Source: a virus (Duplodnaviria; Caudoviricetes). Taken from it: DNA of 64,000 nt. Location of the stretch: positions 1 to 64,000 of IMG/VR virus record IMGVR_UViG_3300021426_000079; one strand, written 5' to 3'. Below the pieces are notes generated by a model, which saw only the letters and a list, made by a program, of their open reading frames with translations, was not told the DNA's origin and ran no database searches. The position numbers and the translations under genes are program-made. Position 1 is the stretch's first letter. Each line of letters opens with the position of its first letter. Shown here piece by piece: positions 1 to 61,601 of the stretch.

Positions 1-165
1 GGCGCGCCATAAGTTCTGATCCGTGCCGATAGCTACAGTCTCAAATACGACACCACTCTCAGACACATCCACCATTGTCGCGTCCAACATGGTATAGGTA
101 GTCACAGCCGCCGCAGATTTTGCGATGTTCTTAAACTCTTTAAAACTAATGTTAAATGCTGTCAT
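1..165 (-). CDS. hypothetical early protein (runs off the window edge)
   Basis: ATG at 165 after GGAGG and the promoter at 212-240; MTAFNISFKEF... stays open to base 1. Confidence 0.7.
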   Translation of the reverse strand, partial: MTAFNISFKEFKNIAKSAAAVTTYTMLDATMVDVSESGVVFETVAIGTDQNLWRA

Positions 166-257
166 GTTCTTTTCCTCCATATGTTTGTGTTTTGTTTTGC
201 TTTGTAACTACATAATACCATATGTCATTTGCAAAGTCAATAGCCTTTTGAATTTTT

Positions 258-593
258 TTAATCCGTCGTTCTATAGAAGTAACTCAATTCATCGCCTGTC
301 AAATGCGTACAAGCGTATTCATCAGCCTTCTGCCACAGATTATTATACAGCTTCGCGCGCGTATCATTCGTTCCGTACCACTGCCAGATTTTCCAGTTCA
401 GAATCAGCACCAGTTCTGTCAGATAAATATAGTCCTCTCGCCAGAATTTAAACGCACGCTTGAATGTATCTTCAATCGCCGCATCACCATAATAATCCGC
501 AATATCAAAGTCATTTCCAAAAGTCGTTTTAATCTCATAACCACAATGCTCTTTTGCGTATGCTTCCCAATCATACATCTTAATGTTATACAT
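258..593 (-). CDS. hypothetical phage protein
   Basis: 111-aa ORF with RBS and its own promoter. Confidence 0.8.
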   Translation of the reverse strand: MYNIKMYDWEAYAKEHCGYEIKTTFGNDFDIADYYGDAAIEDTFKRAFKFWREDYIYLTELVLILNWKIWQWYGTNDTRAKLYNNLWQKADEYACTHLTGDELSYFYRTTD

Positions 594-682
594 ATCTCAC
601 GCCTCCTGTGCGCTGTGTTGTTTGTTACCTTGTACATATACCATAGCATATGCTACAGTATATGTCAAGGCTTTTTATAAAT

Positions 683-1084
683 TTATTTTGCTTTTATAAA
701 ATATCCATATAACGATTTGTGTCCAGAATCCCACGTATCATAATATTGACCATTTACGATGGCAACTACATGGTGTGACACATTCGCCAGATATCGCCCT
801 GTTGGATGCTCTTTTGCAAACTCACTTACTGTTGAGCGTTTTGATCCATCCCTCACGCTAATACCATAATAATCAAAACCTAACTGTTTCAAAATTTCTC
901 TGCGCGTTTTAATCGGAGTATCAAACACATTCGTGCACTGATATTTCCTGCACAAAGGAATTGTCTTATCAAACGCTTCAAGCCATGTACAGTCAAGCAC
1001 CTTGCTTAATGCCCGAATGGTACAATCTCCGTACTGGTCTTTAACATCCTTTTTGTTTGGTTGATAGTATACATACGTTTTCAT
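683..1084 (-). CDS. putative papain-like (Cys-His-Asp) peptidase-fold protein
   Basis: GDCTIRALSK...HVVAIVNGQYYDTWDSG; start moved to MKTYV because the longer ORF begins inside the promoter. Confidence 0.55.
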   Translation of the reverse strand: MKTYVYYQPNKKDVKDQYGDCTIRALSKVLDCTWLEAFDKTIPLCRKYQCTNVFDTPIKTRREILKQLGFDYYGISVRDGSKRSTVSEFAKEHPTGRYLANVSHHVVAIVNGQYYDTWDSGHKSLYGYFIKAK

Positions 1085-1161
1085 GTTTGTGTTTATCCCT
1101 TCTGGAAAATGTGTTGTTTTGTTTGTTTCTAAGTACATTATAGCATATGCTATCAGCTATG

Positions 1162-1413
1162 TCAAGCGTAAATTTTAAAAAAATTATTGCTTATTTCATC
1201 AACGCGAAAACCTAAATCCTGCATCGCGCTTGCCGCGTTTCTCCCTGTCCATACCATAGAATTCTGGGCAAACAGCACTTGACTAATTGCATCCAGTTCA
1301 ACTTTTGTATCCAGACTGTACATATGATAGTCAACTGCTCTGTGGAGTTTTTCCATTCTAGTATAACGATCCGTTGCCAGTTTCCGCTGTCTGAAAATTT
1401 TCGTTGCCTTCAT
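1162..1413 (-). CDS. hypothetical protein
   Basis: MKATKIF start after GGAGG; stop codon lies within the next -35 box. Confidence 0.7.
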   Translation of the reverse strand: MKATKIFRQRKLATDRYTRMEKLHRAVDYHMYSLDTKVELDAISQVLFAQNSMVWTGRNAASAMQDLGFRVDEISNNFFKIYA

Positions 1414-1417
1414 TGTA

Positions 1418-1576
1418 TTACCTCCTATACCATGCAACATACAGATGTTCTTTTCCATCTTTTGAATCCCACGGAGTAACCGCGCCTCTCCTCCATCTTT
1501 TCTGCGTCTTCTCAAATGCTATTGCCTTTTCCTCAGTATCAAAAAATTCAAAAGTTGACTGCAATCTCCGCGCCAT
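1418..1576 (-). CDS. small hypothetical protein (52 aa, absent from ORF track)
   Basis: MARRLQSTFEFFDTEEKAIAF...; fills the gap between neighbours and has an RBS. Confidence 0.6.
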   Translation of the reverse strand: MARRLQSTFEFFDTEEKAIAFEKTQKRWRRGAVTPWDSKDGKEHLYVAWYRR

Positions 1577-1588
1577 ATCTATTCCCCC

Positions 1589-1798
1589 CTATGCCATAAT
1601 CCAGTTTCCGTGCTGAATTCCACTCTTCAATGTAGTAAACAATACGCCCTGTTCCAATCCCCATCCCTGTCCAATGTACCTATAAGGATATGCCGCCACA
1701 AGACTACCATTGTTGTCGCGTTTCATGCCGCGCCGCACTCTTCCGCTCTCAACCCAAACGTTATACTCTTTAATCTTATGCCATCCGTCCTGCACCAT
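1589..1798 (-). CDS. hypothetical protein
   Basis: RBS plus promoter cassette. Confidence 0.75.
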   Translation of the reverse strand: MVQDGWHKIKEYNVWVESGRVRRGMKRDNNGSLVAAYPYRYIGQGWGLEQGVLFTTLKSGIQHGNWIMA

Positions 1799-1868
1799 GC
1801 CTATTTCCTCCTATGTGCTGTGTTTGTTTTGCTTTGTAACTACATAATACCATATGCTATTCCGCTTG

Positions 1869-2171
1869 TCAAGCGGCTTTTTTATTTTCTTTTGAAAAAC
1901 ATTCGCCAACATAACGCCACACGCCATTGCGATAGTCTCCACTAATCCTAGTAAATGTACCCCATGTTTCCGCGTACCTGCCTGTTTTTGGATTCAGCTT
2001 GTAATCATATGGCTCTCCAATCTGAACCAAATTACTCCATGTAAGATGCGGCGGCAGTGCATTGATAAAGTGCATCACCACTGCGCTGTCCACCAGTTTC
2101 CCTTCTACTTCATCAAGATTATTAAAGCTATCGCTCATTTCATAAACATTCTCACCATTGTAAAGATACAT
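1869..2171 (-). CDS. hypothetical phage protein
   Basis: MYLYNGE start after GGAGG; stop overlaps the next -35. Confidence 0.75.
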   Translation of the reverse strand: MYLYNGENVYEMSDSFNNLDEVEGKLVDSAVVMHFINALPPHLTWSNLVQIGEPYDYKLNPKTGRYAETWGTFTRISGDYRNGVWRYVGECFSKENKKAA

Positions 2172-2377
2172 TTCCGCACCTCCTATATGCTGTGTTTTCT
2201 GTTTGTACTTGTATTCTACCATATGTCATTCTAACTTGTCAATACCCAAATTCATTTTACCAAAATAAATTTTACTCAAATACGATTGAATAAAACAAGA
2301 TTGAATAAAATTCCTCGTTGTTAAAAACGATTGTTCCGTGCGAAAAATCCAAAATGAAATTATCGAAACGTGAAAAT

Positions 2378-2405
2378 AAAAAGGGAGGCTTTTACACCTC
2401 CCTTT
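2378..2405 (-). terminator. intrinsic terminator
   Basis: AAAGGGAGG/CCTCCCTTT hairpin followed by a T-rich tract on the minus strand, just after the DUF262 gene. Confidence 0.7.
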
Positions 2406-2410
2406 CCCTG

Positions 2411-3526
2411 TCAAGATGCCATGCACGCTGTGTCCTCGTTCTCCGCGCTCTCTGCTTCCTCTGTATTCTCTACAGTCTCCGCATCCTCTGCGCCGCTGTA
2501 CGTGTCCAGAAACGCCGCCAGTGCGCTGTTTCGCTTATTAATACTGTCATTACTTGCCACTGCATTGCCTGCCGCTTCCAGATACTCAGCAGGTACATCA
2601 GCAAAGAAGTCAATCACAAATTCCTCAAACTTCTCTACGCGCTCGTCATGATCTTCGTACTTGCTCATGTACTTTTCCGCAAACGGCAGAAGTGATACAA
2701 AGTGCGTTTCCGTATAGAGTTTACGTGCAACACCTTTTTCGTTGTCGTCCGTCAACATAGTATGTACATCATGCATAAACTGGAATACATCAGCAATGTG
2801 TGCATACTCTTCATCTGCGATTTCCGCGCTCTCCACAATGGGAGTAAATGTCTTTGACTTGAACGACAGTTCGCTAATCTCGCCATACAGCATACACCAC
2901 GACTTCATTACCAGTGCAACATATGCTTTGTTTTCGCGCGCCTTATCGGATTCCATCTCGTTAATCAGTTCGTTATCCTTCGCAAAGTCAACAATTCTTT
3001 CCAGTTCGTTGCACTCTGCAAGCATCTTGTTTTTGCTAGACAGCGGCTTGCCATTATTCAGCCGTTTAAACAGTTCCTTTTCCTCGCCGAAAGTCAGTTC
3101 ATCAAAATACATTACTGACACTGTATAGTCTTTGATAACATCCTGCAAACTTTCGGGCAGTTCGCTGAATTTCTTACCATTCGGATCGTACTGGAATGGT
3201 TCATCGCTCATATCGTCAATGGTAACTTCGCCAATGCCAGTCAGTTCGTACTCGTCATTCAGATACTCAATGATAGCAGTGAGTCTCTGTTTTCCATCCA
3301 TAATAACATAGGTGTTATCTCCGCGCGCCTCGCTGTTGATATGCTTCCGCGCGTAGATGTTGGGAATAGGATAGCCAATCATCATACTTTCGATTAACTT
3401 TGATTTGCGCGTCTTTTCCCAAACTTCTCCACGCTGTACAATGTGACCAAAATCCAATCTGCCGCGCTTGCTCATTCCTGCAATCTGCTTTGCCGTCCAT
3501 ACGATGTTTGCTCTGTTAAGTGACAT
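2411..3526 (-). CDS. DUF262 (ParB/Srx-fold, GmrS-like) domain protein
   Basis: QRGEVW, IESMMIGYPIP, DGKQRLT and FKRLNNG motifs. Confidence 0.8.
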   Translation of the reverse strand: MSLNRANIVWTAKQIAGMSKRGRLDFGHIVQRGEVWEKTRKSKLIESMMIGYPIPNIYARKHINSEARGDNTYVIMDGKQRLTAIIEYLNDEYELTGIGEVTIDDMSDEPFQYDPNGKKFSELPESLQDVIKDYTVSVMYFDELTFGEEKELFKRLNNGKPLSSKNKMLAECNELERIVDFAKDNELINEMESDKARENKAYVALVMKSWCMLYGEISELSFKSKTFTPIVESAEIADEEYAHIADVFQFMHDVHTMLTDDNEKGVARKLYTETHFVSLLPFAEKYMSKYEDHDERVEKFEEFVIDFFADVPAEYLEAAGNAVASNDSINKRNSALAAFLDTYSGAEDAETVENTEEAESAENEDTACMAS

Positions 3527-3617
3527 AATTTTTTCCTCCTAAATGTGTGTGTTTGTTTTGTTTCTATGCTTACATACTAGCATATGTGATGCAGTATGTC
3601 AAGTACCTTTTTAAAAT

Positions 3618-3767
3618 TTATTTTTGTAACTTCTTGTAAATTTCCTGCAAGTCTTTACTTAATACTAAACCATCAATAACAAGATGCCCTTCCTTATCAT
3701 AGGTATATCTGAACGTTTTACCATTCGCCACGATTGTGTGACATTGCTCACGTTTTCGCTGTTTCAT
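3618..3767 (-). CDS. small hypothetical protein
   Basis: MKQRKRE start after GGAGG and promoter. Confidence 0.65.
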   Translation of the reverse strand: MKQRKREQCHTIVANGKTFRYTYDKEGHLVIDGLVLSKDLQEIYKKLQK

Positions 3768-3954
3768 TTTCCGTACCTCCATTGATGTGTGTTCTTGTTT
3801 GTTTCTAAGTATGTTATACCATATGTTAGAAGCATTGTCAACACTTTTTTTAAAATATTTTTGAATTCTCGCCGCAAACCACATCGCTGAAAAGTTTCGT
3901 TGTTAAAAGCGAAAATGTTTCGTTGTCACAAACGATATGATCTGCCGCCAAAAT

Positions 3955-4182
3955 TCAATAGCCAAAATTGAAATACCTAACTGCGCCATCACGCAACACT
4001 TTTGTTTCTCCGTTGTTGAATGTCACGCTATAAACATAAGTATGATATGGATGAATTCCGCGCGCTTCTAATACTTCATAAACCGCCTTCCACCACGCAT
4101 CATCCTTATTGCGCGCCTCGATTTCAATATTCTCTTCTGGTGAATATGATTCCTTTTGGTAACATACTTTGTACTTACGCAT
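3955..4182 (-). CDS. hypothetical protein
   Basis: RBS plus promoter cassette. Confidence 0.75.
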   Translation of the reverse strand: MRKYKVCYQKESYSPEENIEIEARNKDDAWWKAVYEVLEARGIHPYHTYVYSVTFNNGETKVLRDGAVRYFNFGY

Positions 4183-4330
4183 CGCGCGCGCACCTCCCTC
4201 TTGATATATATGATTATACCATATGCTATCGAATATGTCAATACCTAAATTTAATTATTTTGTCGCAAGATAAATGAATATCCACACGACAAAACCGATT
4301 ATCAGCTTGTCCAATGGTCGCGCCTCCCTG

Positions 4331-4654
4331 TCAAAAATCCACATCGTTAGTGAAACGATCATCACTCTTGACTATATCGCGCACCACATCCAACGGAATG
4401 TTAAAATCTTCACAATGTCCGATTTCTCCATTTCGTTTCACGCTCTTACATTTTGGCATCCCATTTGCCGCGCCGCTTGCAGTGAATACGATTCTCCCTG
4501 TTTCAGCTTCCACGATAACTACATCTTTAGTTTTTGGCGTATTGCTCAAAGCCCACAATTCCGATTGCGCATAGCCTATAGAAGTCATTGTCGTATCAAC
4601 TTTGCCTGTCTTCTTGCTAAATCTGAATGTTACATAGTGATTAAGTTTATCCAT
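4331..4654 (-). CDS. hypothetical protein
   Basis: RBS plus promoter cassette. Confidence 0.75.
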   Translation of the reverse strand: MDKLNHYVTFRFSKKTGKVDTTMTSIGYAQSELWALSNTPKTKDVVIVEAETGRIVFTASGAANGMPKCKSVKRNGEIGHCEDFNIPLDVVRDIVKSDDRFTNDVDF

Positions 4655-4734
4655 CGTTCGCGCCTCCTATGTGCCGTGTTTTGTTTTCTGTGCTCTTATT
4701 ATAGCATATGCTATCGTGTCTGTCAAGTGTATAT

Positions 4735-4935
4735 TTATACATTTTTCTGCATAAATACTCTATCGTCGTCGTCTTCATCTACCACAACGATTTCATATAC
4801 TCTATCAAAATCAATGTGGATAGACTGCGATCTCAAAATCCGCATCTGATTATTATATGCCAGTGTAGGATTGCCAGTGTTCCAAACTTTAGAATACATC
4901 ACATTGCCGCAAACATCACAAACTTCTGTTCTCAT
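4735..4935 (-). CDS. hypothetical protein
   Basis: RBS plus promoter cassette. Confidence 0.7.
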   Translation of the reverse strand: MRTEVCDVCGNVMYSKVWNTGNPTLAYNNQMRILRSQSIHIDFDRVYEIVVVDEDDDDRVFMQKNV

Positions 4936-5008
4936 ATCACACCTCCATTGTGCTGTCTTGCTTGTTTGTACCTACATTGTACTACTAACATATGCTATAT
5001 GTCAAGCA

Positions 5009-5200
5009 TTATTTTTCAATTTTTACTCTACGTTTTCTGATACGATGTGGATATAGTGCCTCATTCTCATTGTAGCATCTCAACATTTCATGTGCTTTAC
5101 AATATGTGTCTTCAGATGTAACCTCTTCCCATCCGCACTCTGATCCGTAATATCCTTCAATCACATATTCATCTCTTGTCTTCCGAACATATTTACTCAT
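5009..5200 (-). CDS. hypothetical phage protein
   Basis: RBS plus promoter cassette. Confidence 0.75.
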   Translation of the reverse strand: MSKYVRKTRDEYVIEGYYGSECGWEEVTSEDTYCKAHEMLRCYNENEALYPHRIRKRRVKIEK

Positions 5201-5290
5201 TGATTTTTCCTCCTATGTGTTGTGCTTGTTTTGTTTTCTATGCTTGCATTATACCATATGCTATGCAAGCTGTCAAGTGTTTTTTGAAAA

Positions 5291-5464
5291 TTATTTATTA
5301 AATTTCCATTCGTGACACTTCGCCAGTGCTTCACGCTGATTCCGCGCCTCTGCGATTTTCTCATATCCTACCGCGCGCAATTCCTGCTCTGAATATTTTC
5401 CGATTGCGAACACTGCATACGCTGTAATGTTTTCCTTAACTGATTCATAAATATCATATCTCAT
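5291..5464 (-). CDS. hypothetical protein
   Basis: MRYDIYE start after GGAGG and promoter. Confidence 0.7.
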   Translation of the reverse strand: MRYDIYESVKENITAYAVFAIGKYSEQELRAVGYEKIAEARNQREALAKCHEWKFNK

Positions 5465-5616
5465 ATCGTTGACCTCCGATCTGTATTCCTTGCTTCTGAT
5501 ATAAATATAGCATATGTTATCTCCGCTGTCAAGTGTTTTTCGGAAATATTTTTCAAGATAATTACTCATAGAATGGCATATACATTGCCGCATATGCCAG
5601 ACTATCAATCATTATC

Positions 5617-6063
5617 TTATAAACTATTGACTGTTGGATATCCTGCTCGCTCCAATGCTGTATTGATATATCGTAACGCATCCTCGCCGCCGTGATCCCT
5701 TGTAAACTTCTGAATTTCCGAAAATGACCTGCGCGGCTTCAACTCTCCAATTACATCAGTGAATAAATCAGTCTGACGATAGCAGTTATATTCCGTGTTT
5801 TCATCATAGCTTGCGCCGCCTTCTAGCTTTGTAGCTTTCAGACCTAAACGATATCCGATTAATTTCCTGCAATATCCTTTGCCTTCATACTGTGGAATCT
5901 GACTGCATACAATCTCAATTGCTTTTCCAGTGTGAATATCGCTGATAAATACGATATGTGCCTGTTTCTCATTCCATATAACATACTTCTGAATATCAAA
6001 TTTCCACGGATTACCCATCTTGCTTTCCATCTTGTTAAGCTGATCTCTTGTAAGTTTTGCCAT
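5617..6063 (-). CDS. hypothetical protein
   Basis: RBS plus promoter cassette. Confidence 0.8.
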   Translation of the reverse strand: MAKLTRDQLNKMESKMGNPWKFDIQKYVIWNEKQAHIVFISDIHTGKAIEIVCSQIPQYEGKGYCRKLIGYRLGLKATKLEGGASYDENTEYNCYRQTDLFTDVIGELKPRRSFSEIQKFTRDHGGEDALRYINTALERAGYPTVNSL

Positions 6064-6139
6064 TGTAATTTCCTCCTATGTTTTGTGTGTTTGTTTTCCT
6101 TACCTTGTAACTACACTCTAGCATATGCTATGCCAGAAG

Positions 6140-6331
6140 TCAACACCTAATGAAATTTCTATCCAGTCTGTCGATATATTCCGCTGTCATTTTCCACGCC
6201 ATAATTGATCCGTCATTATATCCAACTTGATACGCACTTAATGATTCACGATTCGGATTTTCCTGCACTATTCTAATCATTTCCTCCAAATACTCACGAA
6301 TATATTCTAGTTTGGTTTCCGCTGTCAGCAT
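6140..6331 (-). CDS. hypothetical protein
   Basis: RBS plus promoter; stop overlaps the next -35. Confidence 0.75.
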   Translation of the reverse strand: MLTAETKLEYIREYLEEMIRIVQENPNRESLSAYQVGYNDGSIMAWKMTAEYIDRLDRNFIRC

Positions 6332-6385
6332 CTCTTTTCCTCCTCCTGTTTATGCCTCGATTATACCATATGTTATTCCACATTG

Positions 6386-6526
6386 TCAACACTTTTTTGA
6401 AATTAATTTCCATGTATCCACGACAGCTTGCCGCGCATCTGCTGAAAATTTTTTCCACGCTATTTCCGCGCGATCCTCCGAATACCCATAGAAATATTCA
6501 ATAGCCGCGACAAACTGTGATTCCAT
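6386..6526 (-). CDS. small hypothetical protein (46 aa, absent from track)
   Basis: MESQFVAAIEYFYG...; RBS and promoter; TGA lies inside the next TTGACA. Confidence 0.65.
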   Translation of the reverse strand: MESQFVAAIEYFYGYSEDRAEIAWKKFSADARQAVVDTWKLISKKC

Positions 6527-6604
6527 TTCCGTTTCCCTCCTGTTTGGTATGCTTGCATTATAGCATATGTTAGTCTACAACGCAAGCACTATTTCCAAAA
6601 ATTT

Positions 6605-6742
6605 TTATGCTCTGATTTCCTTGTAGTATTCCGACCATGAACATACATTCGTATCATCATCGCCGTCATACCATGCGCGAAACTGTATCATCATTTCCGA
6701 GTATGTAAGAATTTCACCTGCTTCCCTGTTCATGTAACACAT
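6605..6742 (-). CDS. small hypothetical protein (45 aa, absent from track)
   Basis: MCYMNREAGEILTYSEM...; RBS and promoter. Confidence 0.65.
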   Translation of the reverse strand: MCYMNREAGEILTYSEMMIQFRAWYDGDDDTNVCSWSEYYKEIRA

Positions 6743-6833
6743 TTTCTTTTCCTCCTATGCTGTGTGTTTTCCTTGTTTCTGTATGTATTCTACCATATGC
6801 TATTTACGCTATCAAGTGTTTTTTCAAAAATTT

Positions 6834-7031
6834 TTATTCGTACATATGTTCGACAATTTCCAGTTCCGCCAAATTGTCAGAAAATTCTAACTCAATTCCT
6901 GCCGTCTGACCTGCCGCGCGCCATTTCCGCGCATCTGCCGCCATCTGACAGGTAAACAGTGTTCCGCATATGATTCCAGTGATTACCAGTGAAATGATCA
7001 TAGCCGTGATCTGTTTCCATGTTCTTTTCAT
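6834..7031 (-). CDS. small membrane protein
   Basis: MKRTWKQ followed by a hydrophobic helix. Confidence 0.6.
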   Translation of the reverse strand: MKRTWKQITAMIISLVITGIICGTLFTCQMAADARKWRAAGQTAGIELEFSDNLAELEIVEHMYE

Positions 7032-7059
7032 CTTTCCACCTCCGCGATTTTCCGCGCTC

Positions 7060-7263
7060 TCACTGCAATTCCTCGACCTGCTCCACAAGTGCTTTAATTA
7101 CGTTTCCAAGATACTCAATATCGGGATTTTCGTTTCCCTTTGCCAGAATTCCGCACATGATTTCCACTTCATCGCATCTATACTCTTCATCGTCATATCC
7201 ATCGCTGATGCAGTCTAAAACTCTGTTCGCTAATTCCGCTTTTTCAATTTCCGCGTATGTCAT
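7060..7263 (-). CDS. hypothetical protein
   Basis: RBS plus promoter cassette. Confidence 0.75.
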   Translation of the reverse strand: MTYAEIEKAELANRVLDCISDGYDDEEYRCDEVEIMCGILAKGNENPDIEYLGNVIKALVEQVEELQ

Positions 7264-7585
7264 GATCTGTTTCCCTCCGATTGTGTTTTGTTTCCCTTGC
7301 TTTAACTACATTATACCATATGGTATCAGGAAGTCAAGAGATTTTTTAATTTTTTTGATTTCCTGCCGCCGATTTCCGATTACTTAATTATTTTCATCGT
7401 ATTCGATGCAAGCCTCGTCTATGATTTCCATAGCTTGTTTGTATTCCGCGATAATATCATCGCACTTCTGAATGATTTTTTCATCGTATCCAGTGCATCC
7501 ATCGTTTCATCCTCCTGTTGTGTGTTTTGATTTTTGGTTCATTCATGCCCACGATTTTTATATCATGAGCATGGTCAGCTAAAAA

Positions 7586-7768
7586 TCAGAAGTTTTCATC
7601 AATCCATGCGTCTGTCGTCGCGATCTGTTCAGCAGTCATCATAAACTCTGCATAAACTTTATCATAGCATCCGCTGACATCGCTTGCTTTAATGCCGTAT
7701 GTATTGAATACGTGATTTCTCAATGCCGCCATTTCATCCCTGTTCAGAACGATATTAACTTTTTTCAT
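7586..7768 (-). CDS. hypothetical protein
   Basis: RBS plus promoter cassette. Confidence 0.75.
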   Translation of the reverse strand: MKKVNIVLNRDEMAALRNHVFNTYGIKASDVSGCYDKVYAEFMMTAEQIATTDAWIDENF

Positions 7769-7849
7769 TTCGTTGCCTCCTGTTGTGTTTTGTTTGCCTT
7801 GCTATGATTGTATACTACCATATGGTAGCCTATCTGTCAATACCCTTTT

Positions 7850-7981
7850 TTAAAAATTTTCATCGCTGTCGTCGTCGATTAAATCATCATACCATTTGTG
7901 GTGCTTTGCACCTGTCAGCATACCCATGAAAAAGAATATGCCGAATGCGATCCAGATTTCGATATATGGGATAGTGAGCAT
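7850..7981 (-). CDS. small membrane protein (43 aa, absent from track)
   Basis: MLTIPYIEIWIAFGIFFFMGML...; translationally coupled to the J-domain gene. Confidence 0.6.
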   Translation of the reverse strand: MLTIPYIEIWIAFGIFFFMGMLTGAKHHKWYDDLIDDDSDENF

Positions 7982-8517
7982 TACTGCTCACCTCCCTTCT
8001 TTTCATCGAGTGCCAGATTTCTCTGCCGCTTGCCTACGAACACCTCACTGCCGAATGTTGCGCGGATTGTCGCATCGTTCGTGTGCTGATGTTTACGATA
8101 CTTGCCAGTCTTGCCGATATACCATCTCTTGTGAGGCTTGCTCCATTTCGCGCCCATGCTATGAAGTTTGGCTACCTGTTCAGCGGAAAGTTTGACTTTG
8201 CTAGAATCAATCCAGAGCCATGATCCGCATACTTCTACATCACAGCCCATGTTCAGAATTGCGTCGATAATGTCCATGTACTCGGATGCACTCTTGTGTT
8301 CAGCGTTTGCGCTGTCTGCATCTGTTTCGTATTTTTCGCCGCTCTTGTTTTCGTGAACGTTTTTATAACGCGCCCACATATCAGCGAATTCGCTCTGCAT
8401 CGCCTTAAATTGCTCTGCATCGCCGCCATTATCGGGATGTAACTGCTTTGCCCATGCGACATACTCTTTACGGATCTGCTCTGCTGTTGTGCCCTTGAAA
8501 TACTTGTGAAATGCCAT
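7981..8517 (-). CDS. DnaJ/J-domain protein
   Basis: IRKEYVAWAKQLHPDNGGDAEQFKAM contains the HPD motif. Confidence 0.8.
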   Translation of the reverse strand: MAFHKYFKGTTAEQIRKEYVAWAKQLHPDNGGDAEQFKAMQSEFADMWARYKNVHENKSGEKYETDADSANAEHKSASEYMDIIDAILNMGCDVEVCGSWLWIDSSKVKLSAEQVAKLHSMGAKWSKPHKRWYIGKTGKYRKHQHTNDATIRATFGSEVFVGKRQRNLALDEKKGGEQ

Positions 8518-8883
8518 AATGTTTGCCTCCTGTTGTGTGTATGGTGTATGTTTGATTGATTATCTGTATTCTACCATAGGTTATTTGGGAATGTCAATAC
8601 CCATTTTTAATTTTTTTAATCCTGTGCAAGTACTTTGCAAGCTGTCAATTCATCGGCTGTCAGTCTCACGTCGCACTGACTGATAACATAGGTAGCACCT
8701 CCATGATTGAATGATGTATGATTGATTGTTTATGCTTCGCATTGTATCAGAGCAATTAGCATATGTCAATAGGTTTTTTGAAAAAATCTCAAAATATATT
8801 TATGTATTTACTTTGCAATACTTTTGTAACATTTGAAAAAAACCATCTTTTTTTTGCGATAATATGGAAGAAACTTTTCAGCC

Positions 8884-9030
8884 TCGCGCGTGCGCATAAT
8901 GCGCGCCTGTGCGCGTGCGTGCGTGTATGCGTGTGCGCGTTTCGCGCGTGTGTGTGTACCTATGCGCGTGCGGCTGTGCGTGCCTGTGCATCCTGTGCGC
9001 GCAGTGTGCATAATCCATACCAGAGCGCGC
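8884..9030. repeat. alternating purine-pyrimidine (CG/TG) tract
   Basis: gcgcgtgcgtgcgtgtatgcgtgtgcgcg...gcgcgtgtgtgtgtac. Confidence 0.8.
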
Positions 9031-9241
9031 AGCATACCCTACCTATGCAGTAGGATTAATACGGTGAAGTGCTAAATACTAGTATTCATACCAAAATAGA
9101 AGGAATTACGGGACAGATTTGAAAATGTGTACCCAAAAATGTGTCAAGTATTTTTACTTGACAAAACCGAAACGATTCGGTTTTTGAGCACTCTCTGCCT
9201 CGATCTGTTGATAATTTGCACTTTCTGACAAAATGCAAAAC

Positions 9242-9255
9242 CGAACACTTGTTCG
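9242..9255. promoter_or_regulatory. LexA/SOS (Cheo) box
   Basis: CGAACACTTGTTCG fits the Firmicutes CGAAC-N4-GTTCG pattern. Confidence 0.6.
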
Positions 9256-9807
9256 ACCCAGTACGGGGCAGTTTGACAAGACTAACCTCCGGAAAAAGCG
9301 AAAATCTGACGGTAGGGGTTTTTCACATTTCTCAAAAATTTTCTTCGTGTGACCACTTTTGTGACCATTCTAAATTATTCACGTTTCACATGAAACATTT
9401 TCAATATAAGTCCTGCTCTCTTCCACTTCGCTCCCATTCGGCGCAAAACCTACGAACTGGCGAACCTACTGGAATACATACACAACTTCGCGCGCAAGCT
9501 AATTAAAATCACTATATATAGTTTTGCAAGTTCTCTTGCATTTTTATGAACAAGTTATGCATATTATGCACAAAATCTTGCACTGCCATCGCGCCCAAAC
9601 TACGCCCAGAAAATGAAGAAAAGTATTGAGCGAAGTTTCATTCATCTGGCTCAAAACCTGCAATCCAAACTGAGCGAAATACTTTTCTTACCCCTAAACA
9701 AGCTTTATTTTAACTCGCGCGCCCAAATGGTTACGCGGCGAAAAATGCTCGATTAGCGCGCTCGTTCGGAACTACTAGAATAATAAAAAATATTTATAAT
9801 TTATATC

Positions 9808-9836
9808 TTGACAAACAATATAATCTATGTTATAAT
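9808..9836 (+). promoter_or_regulatory. consensus sigmaA promoter
   Basis: TTGACA-17 nt-TATAAT with an extended TG. Confidence 0.75.
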
Positions 9837-10383: not shown

Positions 10384-10412
10384 TTGACATGCGAACATAA
10401 ATGTGTTATTAT
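10384..10412 (+). promoter_or_regulatory. sigmaA promoter of the rightward operon leading to the RNAP gene
   Basis: TTGACA-17-TATTAT, followed by CCATATG. Confidence 0.65.
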
Positions 10413-60806: not shown

Positions 60807-61601
60807 TTATTTTCTTTCTTTGAGAATCTGCACGCTGCGCATGATGCTCGGAATCGCCGCGTCCATGTCGTCTTTCCAATCGCCTACATATTCATAGGTA
60901 ATGTCATCTTCATCCTCTGCCGCCTCGATGCGCGCGCAATACCCATCAAGAAGATTGTAGTCTTTGGCGTAGCAGTGGAATGAATTCGCGCGATGAACGT
61001 AACTTCCGACCTCAACGCCCAACTCGTCTGCAATTTTCTTCTGTAACATAATCAGCGCAAAAGCGTTCATGAATGTTGCCTTGCAAGCGTCGTTAGAGCG
61101 GAACAGCACTTTGCAACACAGTTTGCCGCCGCGCACGAAATAATGTACGTGCTGAAGACAAGCTACATCATCGTTGTACATTTCTGTATTCTTATCTCTT
61201 ATGACCATGACCGCGCGCCGACTCGACGGATTGCGCTTTAACTCGTCGATTACAAAAGGAATCTGGTCTGCGTATCTCTGGTGATAAGTGTACGCCCACT
61301 TGCCGCGCTCAACCTCAAAGTCAAGAATACCGTCAGTCATTTCAAGAACGTATTGTTCCAGTTCTTCCGCGCCGCCAATAAAGCAACGCGAAATCATCGG
61401 CTCTTGCAGAGGATTCGCCACACACATCGTCATGGAAATCTCTTTCTGTTTGGTATTCCAGTCTACGCAATCAGTCTCAACGCCGCAACGTTGCAATTTC
61501 ATCAATGCCATGTGATACGCCGCAGGTAATGTAGTGGCACTTACGGTTGCTTCTGGAATGTCAAATACTAATGGATTCGCCCATTGGAAGTTCATATTCA
61601 T
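60807..61601 (-). CDS. thyA: thymidylate synthase (short, archaeal-like ThyA type)
   Basis: SRRA, ACLQ, FRSND, N, SFHCY motifs. Confidence 0.85.
   Translation of the reverse strand: MNMNFQWANPLVFDIPEATVSATTLPAAYHMALMKLQRCGVETDCVDWNTKQKEISMTMCVANPLQEPMISRCFIGGAEELEQYVLEMTDGILDFEVERGKWAYTYHQRYADQIPFVIDELKRNPSSRRAVMVIRDKNTEMYNDDVACLQHVHYFVRGGKLCCKVLFRSNDACKATFMNAFALIMLQKKIADELGVEVGSYVHRANSFHCYAKDYNLLDGYCARIEAAEDEDDITYEYVGDWKDDMDAAIPSIMRSVQILKERK

Follow-up and report, generated by a model that had tools for sequence, protein, structure and literature searches.

The window analysed here is a stretch of 64 kb which forms the first part of a 97,496 bp IMG/VR virus record (IMGVR_UViG_3300021426_000079), and near its start lies an array of closely spaced leftward promoters sharing one short palindrome. 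Coordinates are those of the window except where marked as genome. The ends of the record share a 127-bp repeat that merely reflects overlap in the assembly; without it the genome measures 97,369 bp, and its map is effectively circular. An RNA polymerase gene, structural genes, a diversity-generating retroelement and lysis genes are found among the rightward genes between about 10.4 and 57.4 kb. The leftward arm runs from 8,770 across the contig start down to about 57.9 kb, and the array stands at the head of this arm.

Reading of the minus strand together with a scan for TTGACA-16/18-TATAAT identified 20 leftward near-consensus sigmaA-type promoters between 165 and 8770 (Table 1; the higher coordinate of each promoter is the start of its -35 element). 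The same 20 had been listed in an earlier reading of the letters alone, referred to here as the original prediction. The end of the array at 165 proposed there was not retained, because the window opens inside the array and further units are situated at genome 96383 and 94620, giving 22 units in about 11.5 kb. The density is about one unit per 0.5 kb, and the 22 array promoters serve about 30 small early genes. Three isolated units in the replication and nucleotide-metabolism part of the same arm (genome 78811, 66419 and 59048) bring the number to 25 genome-wide. Promoter sites with at least 10 of 12 hexamer matches and an upstream TG numbered 17 on the array strand, compared with 0.26 in shuffled sequences (maximum 3 of 300), while the two strands of the 45-kb structural arm contained 0 and 1.

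The repeated cassette is about 95 bp long and composed of an A/T-rich UP-like tract, a -35 element TTGACA, a 17-bp spacer, a -10 element, a leader and a GGAGG ribosome-binding site (RBS), followed by one to four small genes. The leaders are rich in A and C (A 59%, C 24%, G 8%, T 10%) and are predicted to be unstructured, with -0.025 kcal/mol per nt vs -0.11 upstream of the structural genes. GGAGG is present in 20 of the 22 units, in agreement with the leader and GGAGG originally noticed after most promoters. Only two hairpins were found in the whole array, behind the genes ending at 2411 and 5617. Four genes stop at the TGA within the TTGAC of the next -35 element (open reading frame (ORF) ends 1162, 1869, 6140 and 6386), exactly as had been reported before. 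As most units have no terminator, the transcripts would be nested.

Unit 1 (8600-8769) has a full promoter, leader and GGAGG but merely a 7-codon ORF ahead of unit 2. No significant structure was predicted for its 91-nt transcript (z 0.02), and the unit might encode a leader peptide or a small RNA, or be a decayed cassette. A/C-rich leader-like stretches devoid of an intact promoter are present at 7503-7586 (RBS at 7503) and genome ~92400-92440, and look like relics of decayed or recombined units. Two unusually long array spacers (2250-2345 and 3850-3950) share TTTTAACAACGA-type motifs outside the promoter unit.

The palindrome and its overlap with the promoter

Conservation was counted in 20 in-register units aligned on the -10 element. 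The block T-A-r-C-A-T-A-T-G-s-T-A is present with 20, 17, (G/A), 20, 19, 20, 20, 20, 20, (G/C), 20 and 20 matches of 20 at its successive positions, and a flanking A and T (14/20 each) extend it to the 14-bp palindrome ATAgCATATGsTAT, which takes up the promoter-proximal half of the spacer and the first bases of the -10 element. Conservation in the block exceeds that at positions 3-5 of the -10 hexamer, and the 5-7 spacer bases immediately upstream of it show background conservation. The sequence TAnCATATGnTA occurs 17 times in the 97-kb genome against 0.11 expected, and all the copies are inside these promoters. When the genome was scanned with a weight matrix, every array unit was among the top 21 matches. 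In 18 of the 20 window units the core lies 1 nt upstream of the -10 element (17 with CATATG and one with CCTATG, at 8597), and in the units at 5005 and 8769 it is shifted toward the -35 element; both the fixed register and the two shifts had been correctly described in the original prediction.

The right half of the palindrome overlaps with promoter elements. Its TATG corresponds to the Firmicute TRTG -16 motif and the following TA opens the -10 hexamer. TATG is found in all 20 in-register units and, together with the -35 TTGACA at a distance of 17 +/- 1 bp, fits Firmicute extended -10 sigmaA promoters; the promoter scan likewise flagged a TG ahead of the second hexamer. As background, 471 other near-consensus promoters were collected from 117 unrelated phage loci fetched by pattern. 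TRTG was present in 45% of them. CA preceded TATG in only 2 of the 122 background promoters with TATG, and TAn before CATATG was at chance level. The left half mirrors the right half exactly, base for base, which for the four fixed bases has a chance of 1 in 256. The whole element is also kept in the unit at 5005 (ATAGCATATGTTA, 6 bp off register) and in the unit at 8769 (TGACATATGCTA, at the -35 element). Good promoters of the same phage at 9808, at 10384 and before the gene for MrpR-like 1, described below, possess no palindrome.

Because the left half is not generic and the element survives displacement, it was concluded that the palindrome is a predicted independent protein-recognition site, laid over the -16/-10 region in the classical position of a repressor. 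The shared operator proposed originally therefore stands as an element in its own right; the TATG and TA of its right half are ordinary promoter sequence, and only the left half argues for an operator.

Genes of the array, candidate regulators and LexA boxes

The last unit of the array, at genome 94620, drives three genes in turn, coding for an integrase, MrpR-like 1 and MrpR-like 2 (Table 1). A profile of MrpR-like 1, built from 37 homologs obtained in a search of 1.8 billion proteins, matched SPbeta YopR/MrpR at ~1e-40 and phi3T SroF at 7e-43 among PDB entries (8bj6/8a0a/9rd5). In hhalign, MrpR-like 1 and SPbeta YopR aligned with a probability of 99.6% over 264 columns. The AlphaFold model has a pLDDT (predicted local distance difference test) of 90, and the top Foldseek matches were MrpR, YopR and SroF, with true recombinases well behind. 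The MrpR-like proteins are only ~16-19% identical to MrpR and SroF. In the hhalign columns the position of the first catalytic Arg is Leu and that of the first His is Thr, the second Arg is maybe kept, and the alignment excludes the tyrosine region. MrpR-like 1 also has its own promoter, TTGAAT-18-TATAAT, and this promoter is free of the palindrome, as expected for a repressor which must stay on. The single repressor of the original prediction has thus gained a candidate family encoded right after the array, on the basis of Pfam, profile and structure, in the form of two paralogs whose repressing role we infer. About 85 phage ORFs were scanned against Pfam, and neither a helix-turn-helix nor another regulator family was detected; most of these ORFs were also uninformative in PHROGs. 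A database protein of 247 aa, P0014, resembles MrpR-like 1 up to a shared YWGL motif and MrpR-like 2 after it; either the paralogs have recombined in a relative, or the protein is a chimera of the assembly.

The R, K, HxxR, H and Y catalytic motifs of the 331-aa recombinase are visible by eye. In place of a normal core-binding domain it has a short beta-rich N-terminus, and its C-terminus bears an additional domain of ~85 aa. It showed no detectable similarity to SPbeta YopP and no direct sequence match in PDB. Most simply, it is the phage's own integrase. Its presence removes one part of the original prediction, which had compared the array with an integron lacking an integrase.

Perfect Firmicute LexA boxes (CGAAC-N4-GTTCG) occur only twice in 97 kb, against ~0.09 expected. 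The two boxes are identical in 13 of 14 bases and bracket the block of array and repressor genes, one at each end. LexA itself was considered as binder of the palindrome and rejected; the CATATG centre is common to both sites, but the palindrome is flanked by TAG/CTA and not by GAAC/GTTC. The box at genome 91277-91290 sits just before an UP element and a TTGCAT-17-TAATAT promoter, which leads into the stretch at genome 90534-90894 (L003:13038-13398). This stretch has a tRNA-Gln(UUG) (ARAGORN and Rfam, 63.9 bits) and, behind it, a gene for a protein of 74 aa whose C-terminal half is very acidic; the protein might, speculatively, be a counterpart of Sar, the DNA-mimicking antirepressor of phi3T. 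The other box is contained in a 41-codon minus-strand ORF with GGAGG and a TTG start at 9279, in the stretch 9142-9291. The stretch also has a perfect hairpin with a 9-bp stem (TGTCAAGTA/TACTTGACA) and a T-run at 9142-9163, and the whole element could be a small SOS-linked gene or RNA. Between the divergent arms, at 8880-9010, about 130 bp of GC-rich low-complexity sequence (GCGC, TGCG, GTGT) harbours no credible gene and may be an origin, a packaging site or something else. A direct repeat GTGACCA...GTGACCA with a 13-bp pitch at 9335-9370 in the control region looks like a site for another regulator.

The recognisable products of the array are a J-domain-like protein, a DUF262-only protein, two peptidase-like paralogs, the sliding clamp and two 19-aa hydrophobic peptides, and the rest are ORFans (Table 1). 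Among the ORFans of the 3618..7768 run, those of sufficient size for scanning had no credible counterpart in Pfam or PHROG. The earlier statement that nearly all payload proteins are of no known family is in line with these scans. The two 19-aa peptides (4255-4314 and genome 95543-95602, L003:18047-18106) are paralogs with the consensus xDKLIIxFxVWxFIYLATK, and each gene is tucked behind a larger gene; the related contig L122 has the end of a third copy. The array region may plausibly serve host takeover or anti-defence. Only one gene is clearly of the anti-defence kind; it codes for a Tad2-like (Thoeris anti-defence 2) protein (Pfam E 8e-19; genome 64252-64590, L004:6756-7094) and is situated in the leftward arm outside the array. 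Elsewhere the genome encodes a thymidylate-synthase-like protein (60807-61601), a nucleoside 2-deoxyribosyltransferase-like protein (L004:16446-16934) and a C5-methylase fragment (L004:12174-12368), and GCGCGC-type motifs are conspicuous in the sequence. These nucleotide-enzyme genes suggest modified phage DNA; that the early DUF262-only protein then counters GmrSD/BrxU-type restriction is speculation.

Table 1. Promoter units, genes and control sites of the array and its surroundings. Positions are those of the window unless marked as genome; operator stands for the predicted palindromic site, and L122 is a related metagenome contig.
Feature	Position	Strand	Remarks
Unit 1 promoter	8741..8769	-	TTGACA-17-TACAAT; element TGACATATGCTA displaced onto/fused to -35; only 7-codon ORF 8666-8689
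Unit 2 promoter	8568..8597	-	variant operator ATAACCTATGGTAG at 8571-8584
Unit 3 promoter	7812..7840	-	operator CTACCATATGGTAG at 7815-7828
Unit 4 promoter	7310..7337	-	perfect 14-bp palindrome ATACCATATGGTAT at 7313-7326
Unit 5 promoter	6787..6815	-	operator 6790-6803
Unit 6 promoter	6557..6585	-	weak -35 TTGCGT; operator 6560-6573
Unit 7 promoter	6360..6389	-	operator 6363-6376; -35 TGA is stop of upstream gene
Unit 8 promoter	6115..6143	-	operator 6118-6131; -35 TGA is stop of upstream gene
Unit 9 promoter	5504..5532	-	operator 5507-5520; strong hairpin before it, 5550-5619 (-29.7 kcal/mol)
Unit 10 promoter	5248..5276	-	consensus operator ATAGCATATGGTAT at 5251-5264
Unit 11 promoter	4976..5005	-	full operator ATAGCATATGTTA 6 bp upstream (~4985-4998), off -16 register
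Unit 12 promoter	4698..4726	-	operator 4701-4714
Unit 13 promoter	4213..4241	-	operator 4216-4229; left junction of L122 cassette swap
Unit 14 promoter	3813..3841	-	operator 3816-3829
Unit 15 promoter	3574..3602	-	operator 3577-3590
Unit 16 promoter	2213..2242	-	operator 2216-2229
Unit 17 promoter	1844..1872	-	operator 1847-1860; -35 TGA is stop of upstream gene
Unit 18 promoter	1137..1165	-	operator 1140-1153; -35 TGA is stop of upstream gene
Unit 19 promoter	640..668	-	operator 643-656
Unit 20 promoter	212..240	-	operator 215-228; drives sliding clamp; right junction of L122 swap
J-domain-like protein	7981..8517	-	178 aa, HPD motif, phrog_15863
Hydrophobic ORF	7850-7981	-	43 aa, behind J-domain-like gene
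Run of 15 ORFan genes	3618..7768	-	19-148 aa, each behind GGAGG-type RBS
ORFan 1	7586-7768	-	
ORFan 2	7419-7502	-	
ORFan 3	7060-7263	-	
ORFan 4	6834-7031	-	
ORFan 5	6605-6742	-	
ORFan 6	6386-6526	-	
ORFan 7	6140-6331	-	
ORFan 8	5617-6063	-	
ORFan 9	5291-5464	-	
ORFan 10	5009-5200	-	
ORFan 11	4735-4935	-	
ORFan 12	4331-4654	-	
ORFan 13	4255-4314	-	
ORFan 14	3955-4182	-	
ORFan 15	3618-3767	-	
DUF262 (GmrSD_N-only) protein	2411..3526	-	371 aa, no nuclease domain, unit 15
Intrinsic terminator	2366-2407		directly behind DUF262 gene
Payload gene	1869-2171	-	phrog_33611
Payload gene	1589-1798	-	phrog_33937
Payload gene	1418-1576	-	
Payload gene	1162-1413	-	
Peptidase-like gene	683-1084	-	phrog_3754; paralog at genome 94631-95038
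Payload gene	258-593	-	
Sliding clamp	5' end 1..165	-	373 aa, phrog_947; runs across contig start to genome 96413
Integrase gene	genome 93548-94543	-	331 aa, Phage_integrase family, E 9e-9
MrpR-like 1	genome 92457-93476	-	339 aa, Pfam MrpR_N_CB (PF22822) over whole model, E 1.8e-10, above curated cut-off
MrpR-like 2	genome 91294-92337	-	347-aa paralog of MrpR-like 1
LexA (Cheo) box	9242-9255	.	perfect, CGAACACTTGTTCG; divergent control region upstream of array
Second LexA box	genome 91277-91290 (L003:13781-13794)		perfect; 4 nt past MrpR-like 2 stop

Relatives and cassette exchange

In a self-comparison of the genome, all repeats fell within the promoter-leader units (50-107 bp, 71-93% identity), and none reached into a gene. 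One close relative was available, the 1.2-kb metagenome contig L122, whose clamp is 95% identical. Its nt 2-65 match genome 4280-4217 (97%) and the match ends at the right edge of the unit-13 palindrome. L122 continues with its own remainder of the -10 element, a leader and a 66-aa gene absent from this genome. The match resumes with nt 363 to 1195, from 230 on; it begins 2-3 bp ahead of the unit-20 palindrome and runs on into the clamp gene. About 4 kb with seven units here is therefore represented in L122 by one foreign cassette, with a palindrome at each junction. Similarities among the upstream and the downstream halves of the units were uncorrelated (Mantel r 0.10, p 0.19), which fits exchange near the palindrome and could also be explained by low-complexity composition.

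A second comparison, between the contigs L268 and L269, revealed a 1.48-kb insertion which starts 14 nt after a -10 element, in the leader, while the other replacements are at RBS or stop positions. Promoter units are thus one class of junction and not the only one. The proposal that the repeats serve as crossover points is supported by both junctions of L122; most of the swaps between L268 and L269 are at ordinary gene boundaries.

Comparison of the array with GenBank phages by megablast and blastn found no close relatives, and the MrpR-like protein had none there either. The clamp protein and a clamp alignment, searched against IMG/VR, JGI metagenomes and GTDB genomes, returned only L122. 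DNA patterns of the leader and operator gave single unrelated matches in IMG/VR and GTDB, with no second dense array carrying this operator. The MrpR-like alignments were too divergent as a locus query, and protein P0015 as a query yielded no close relatives. Nothing comparable to the promoter array was present in the upstream 10 kb of relatives identified through the RNA polymerase (51-54% identity). Logan contigs hold clamp variants 89-95% identical and a DUF262 protein 98% identical.

Fifteen IMG/VR loci with a DUF262 homolog were also compared. Lineage-specific repeated early promoter units are common across these gut phages, and none is as dense as the array described here. In group B (L267-L269, IMG/VR contigs of 15-130 kb), a related gut-phage lineage, TTGACA is followed by ACTACATGA-N10-TCATGTAGT, forming 9-bp inverted arms around the -10 element. 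Group B shares ATATGGTATyATGTAGTTA with five units of this phage and encodes a 339-aa MrpR-like ORF nearby, whose promoter keeps the left arm only; similar units together with an MrpR-like gene in a second lineage favour MrpR-like proteins as the binders.

A candidate early regulon and its comparison with known systems

On the reading preferred here, an SPbeta-like and probably temperate phage of a gut Firmicute would have its immediate-early genes in this region. Host sigmaA RNA polymerase would read all the units at once, as suggested by the near-consensus -35 and -10 elements, the TRTG -16 motif and the UP elements. A phage-encoded sequence-specific protein may bind the palindrome. With the site lying across the -16/-10 region, such binding would occlude the polymerase and silence the whole set at once. 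We regard one or both of the MrpR/SroF-family proteins, whose genes directly follow the array, as the likeliest binder. MrpR-like 1 would stay on while the rest is silenced, either in maintenance of lysogeny or in an early shut-off, and the flanking LexA boxes suggest an SOS-linked release. The repeated units would be short homologies at which gene cassettes exchange. On balance we lean toward this explanation, an SPbeta-like early regulon under one repressor with repeats doubling as exchange points, in which we infer the binding and the repression.

Several observations weigh against it. Promoter function by itself accounts for half of the palindrome, and the evidence for recombination rests on a single 1.2-kb metagenome contig. 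The complete genomes of a further group of DUF262 loci, group A, possess different conserved units and no MrpR-like gene, showing that such promoter conservation does not require MrpR. SroF and MrpR bind as monomers to a long asymmetric box of 24-26 bp, and a perfect palindrome of 14 bp would rather suggest a small symmetric dimer. Possible ways out of this conflict are that distant paralogs bind differently, perhaps as a pair, that the real box spans the region from -35 to -10 with only its centre visibly constrained, or that the binder is another, unrecognised protein. For the putative temperate lifestyle, the integrase-family gene and the two LexA boxes speak in favour; a prophage copy was sought in 185,579 GTDB species genomes and none was found, which speaks against it.

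Among the alternatives, a real operator with a different binder comes closest, although we consider it rather unlikely. Here the palindrome would be bound by an unrecognised small dimeric early protein or by the ParB-fold DUF262 protein of unit 15, giving negative feedback that ends early transcription in a purely lytic programme. A perfect palindrome of 12-14 bp is the typical footprint of a small symmetric dimer, about 20 ORFs of the array have no detectable family, and the MrpR family is monomeric in its binding mode with a 24-26-bp box (bioRxiv 10.1101/2025.11.27.690993); that no helix-turn-helix family was detected in any scanned ORF argues against this alternative. As to the second candidate, DUF262 belongs to the ParB-like fold, and KorB, of the ParB family, is a global repressor acting on palindromes. 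Homologs of the DUF262 protein number more than 1170, at ~47% identity, and are spread over many unrelated large phage contigs, where the promoter units differ and do not co-vary with it, and the best structural matches of its model are the N-terminal parts of BrxU and SspE and not DNA-binding ParB. With such widespread homologs, differing units and a BrxU/SspE-like model, it was judged unlikely as a lineage-specific repressor. Improbable to a greater degree is the absence of any repressor, with the block as a promoter-strength element (extended -16/-10) for host or phage-modified RNA polymerase, kept uniform by selection for maximal early expression. The fit of TATG to Firmicute TRTG, the frequency of TRTG in the background set and the wholly promoter-like right half all favour this possibility, as does the presence of CATATGGTATAAT beside TTGAC in more than 117 IMG/VR contigs. 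T4 early promoters are likewise conserved beyond their hexamers. The exact mirroring by the left half and the rarity of CA before TATG in the background do not follow from promoter strength; moreover, the left half is located at -22 to -18, where sigmaA has no known base contacts, the complete element recurs in two promoters in which a -16 role is impossible, and the three good promoters of this phage noted above manage without it.

A recombination site is the least probable identity of the palindrome. It would then be the core site of the array tyrosine recombinase in a phage 'integron', with each cassette bringing its own promoter halves. This is consistent with the Phage_integrase-family protein and its catalytic motifs, with the exact bounding of the L122 swap by two palindromes and with the uncorrelated unit halves. 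An integrase beside repressor genes is, on the other hand, an ordinary lysogeny module, and the known core sites of tyrosine recombinases do not resemble 7-bp arms that lack a central spacer. Recombination at short homologies accounts equally for a single swap, the L268/L269 junctions are in the leader and at RBS or stop positions and not at the dyads, and the half-unit result is also obtainable from low-complexity composition. Hardly more credible is a double role, in which the 12-bp palindrome is an operator and at the same time the crossover core for the array recombinase and/or the recombinase-derived MrpR-like proteins, with integron-like cassettes; it would explain the exact palindrome-to-palindrome swap in L122.

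The array differs from integrons in that every cassette has its own promoter, whereas integron cassettes are promoterless, have attC hairpin sites at their ends and enter at attI, beside an IntI integrase and one common promoter. No attC-like imperfect hairpins are present in the array, and the recombinase matches the general Phage_integrase family only. SPO1 is a virulent phage which switches by phage sigma factors and, to our knowledge, no shared palindromic operator has been described for it. Its host-takeover module (PMC6873191) resembles the array as a cluster of dense small early genes, nearly each with a sigmaA promoter and a strong Shine-Dalgarno sequence, which are read first by host polymerase; the module lies in a 13-kb terminal redundancy, while the end repeat here is an assembly overlap.

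The PeSL (promoter-early stem-loop) cassettes of T4-type phages (PMC2839356, PMC4122927) likewise combine repeated strong host-type early promoters with a hyperplastic region of small ORFan genes, and their repeats mark insertion and replacement junctions between close relatives, for which there is one case here. The analogy drawn in the original prediction holds for the repeated promoters and this one junction case and fails for the terminator. The units of the array carry no stem-loop terminator, their genes end in or at the next -35 element with two hairpins in the whole array, and they have an operator-like palindrome with a conserved leader and RBS in a phage of a Gram-positive host. The swap bounded by palindromes offers a concrete testable case of early-region turnover. 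About 30 first-expressed ORFan genes also make the array a compact library, well suited to screens for host takeover and counter-defence, and its units form a naturally occurring series of strong, co-regulated promoter-leader-RBS parts, graded and usable in Firmicutes.

MrpR is the master repressor of SPbeta and binds the repeated SPBRE in about 10 promoter regions (PMC10516654). SroF of phi3T binds as a monomer and reads 24/26 bp of an asymmetric box, and the phi3T antirepressor is under LexA/SOS control (bioRxiv 10.1101/2025.11.27.690993). When SPBRE was located in SPbeta, it was found to fill the spacer and abut the -10 element of TAGACA-17-TATAAT promoters, the same place as that of the palindrome. 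Both systems encode a repressor family with an integrase-like core-binding (CB) and catalytic (CAT) fold and have one repeated element in the spacer/-10 region of many sigmaA-type early promoters. An integrase-like gene adjoins here too, and the nearby LexA boxes recall the phi3T antirepressor. The differences are 22-25 sites at one per 0.5 kb vs about 10, a perfect palindrome of 12-14 bp vs an asymmetric box of 15-26 bp read by a monomer, two distant repressor paralogs, no recognised arbitrium genes and a gut Firmicute rather than Bacillus as host. The palindromic site conflicts with the monomeric long-box mode of SroF, and may reflect either a new binding mode in this family or another repressor. 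Beyond the original prediction, the analysis adds a tyrosine recombinase and two MrpR/SroF-family proteins directly after the palindrome-promoter array, the first of the two with a palindrome-free promoter, and the two flanking LexA boxes. If the proposed regulon is true, the 'integrase-turned-repressor' logic of SPbeta would be found outside Bacillus, in uncultured human-gut phages, and in an extreme form, in which a single 14-bp switch joined to the -10 element would control about 25 strong promoters.

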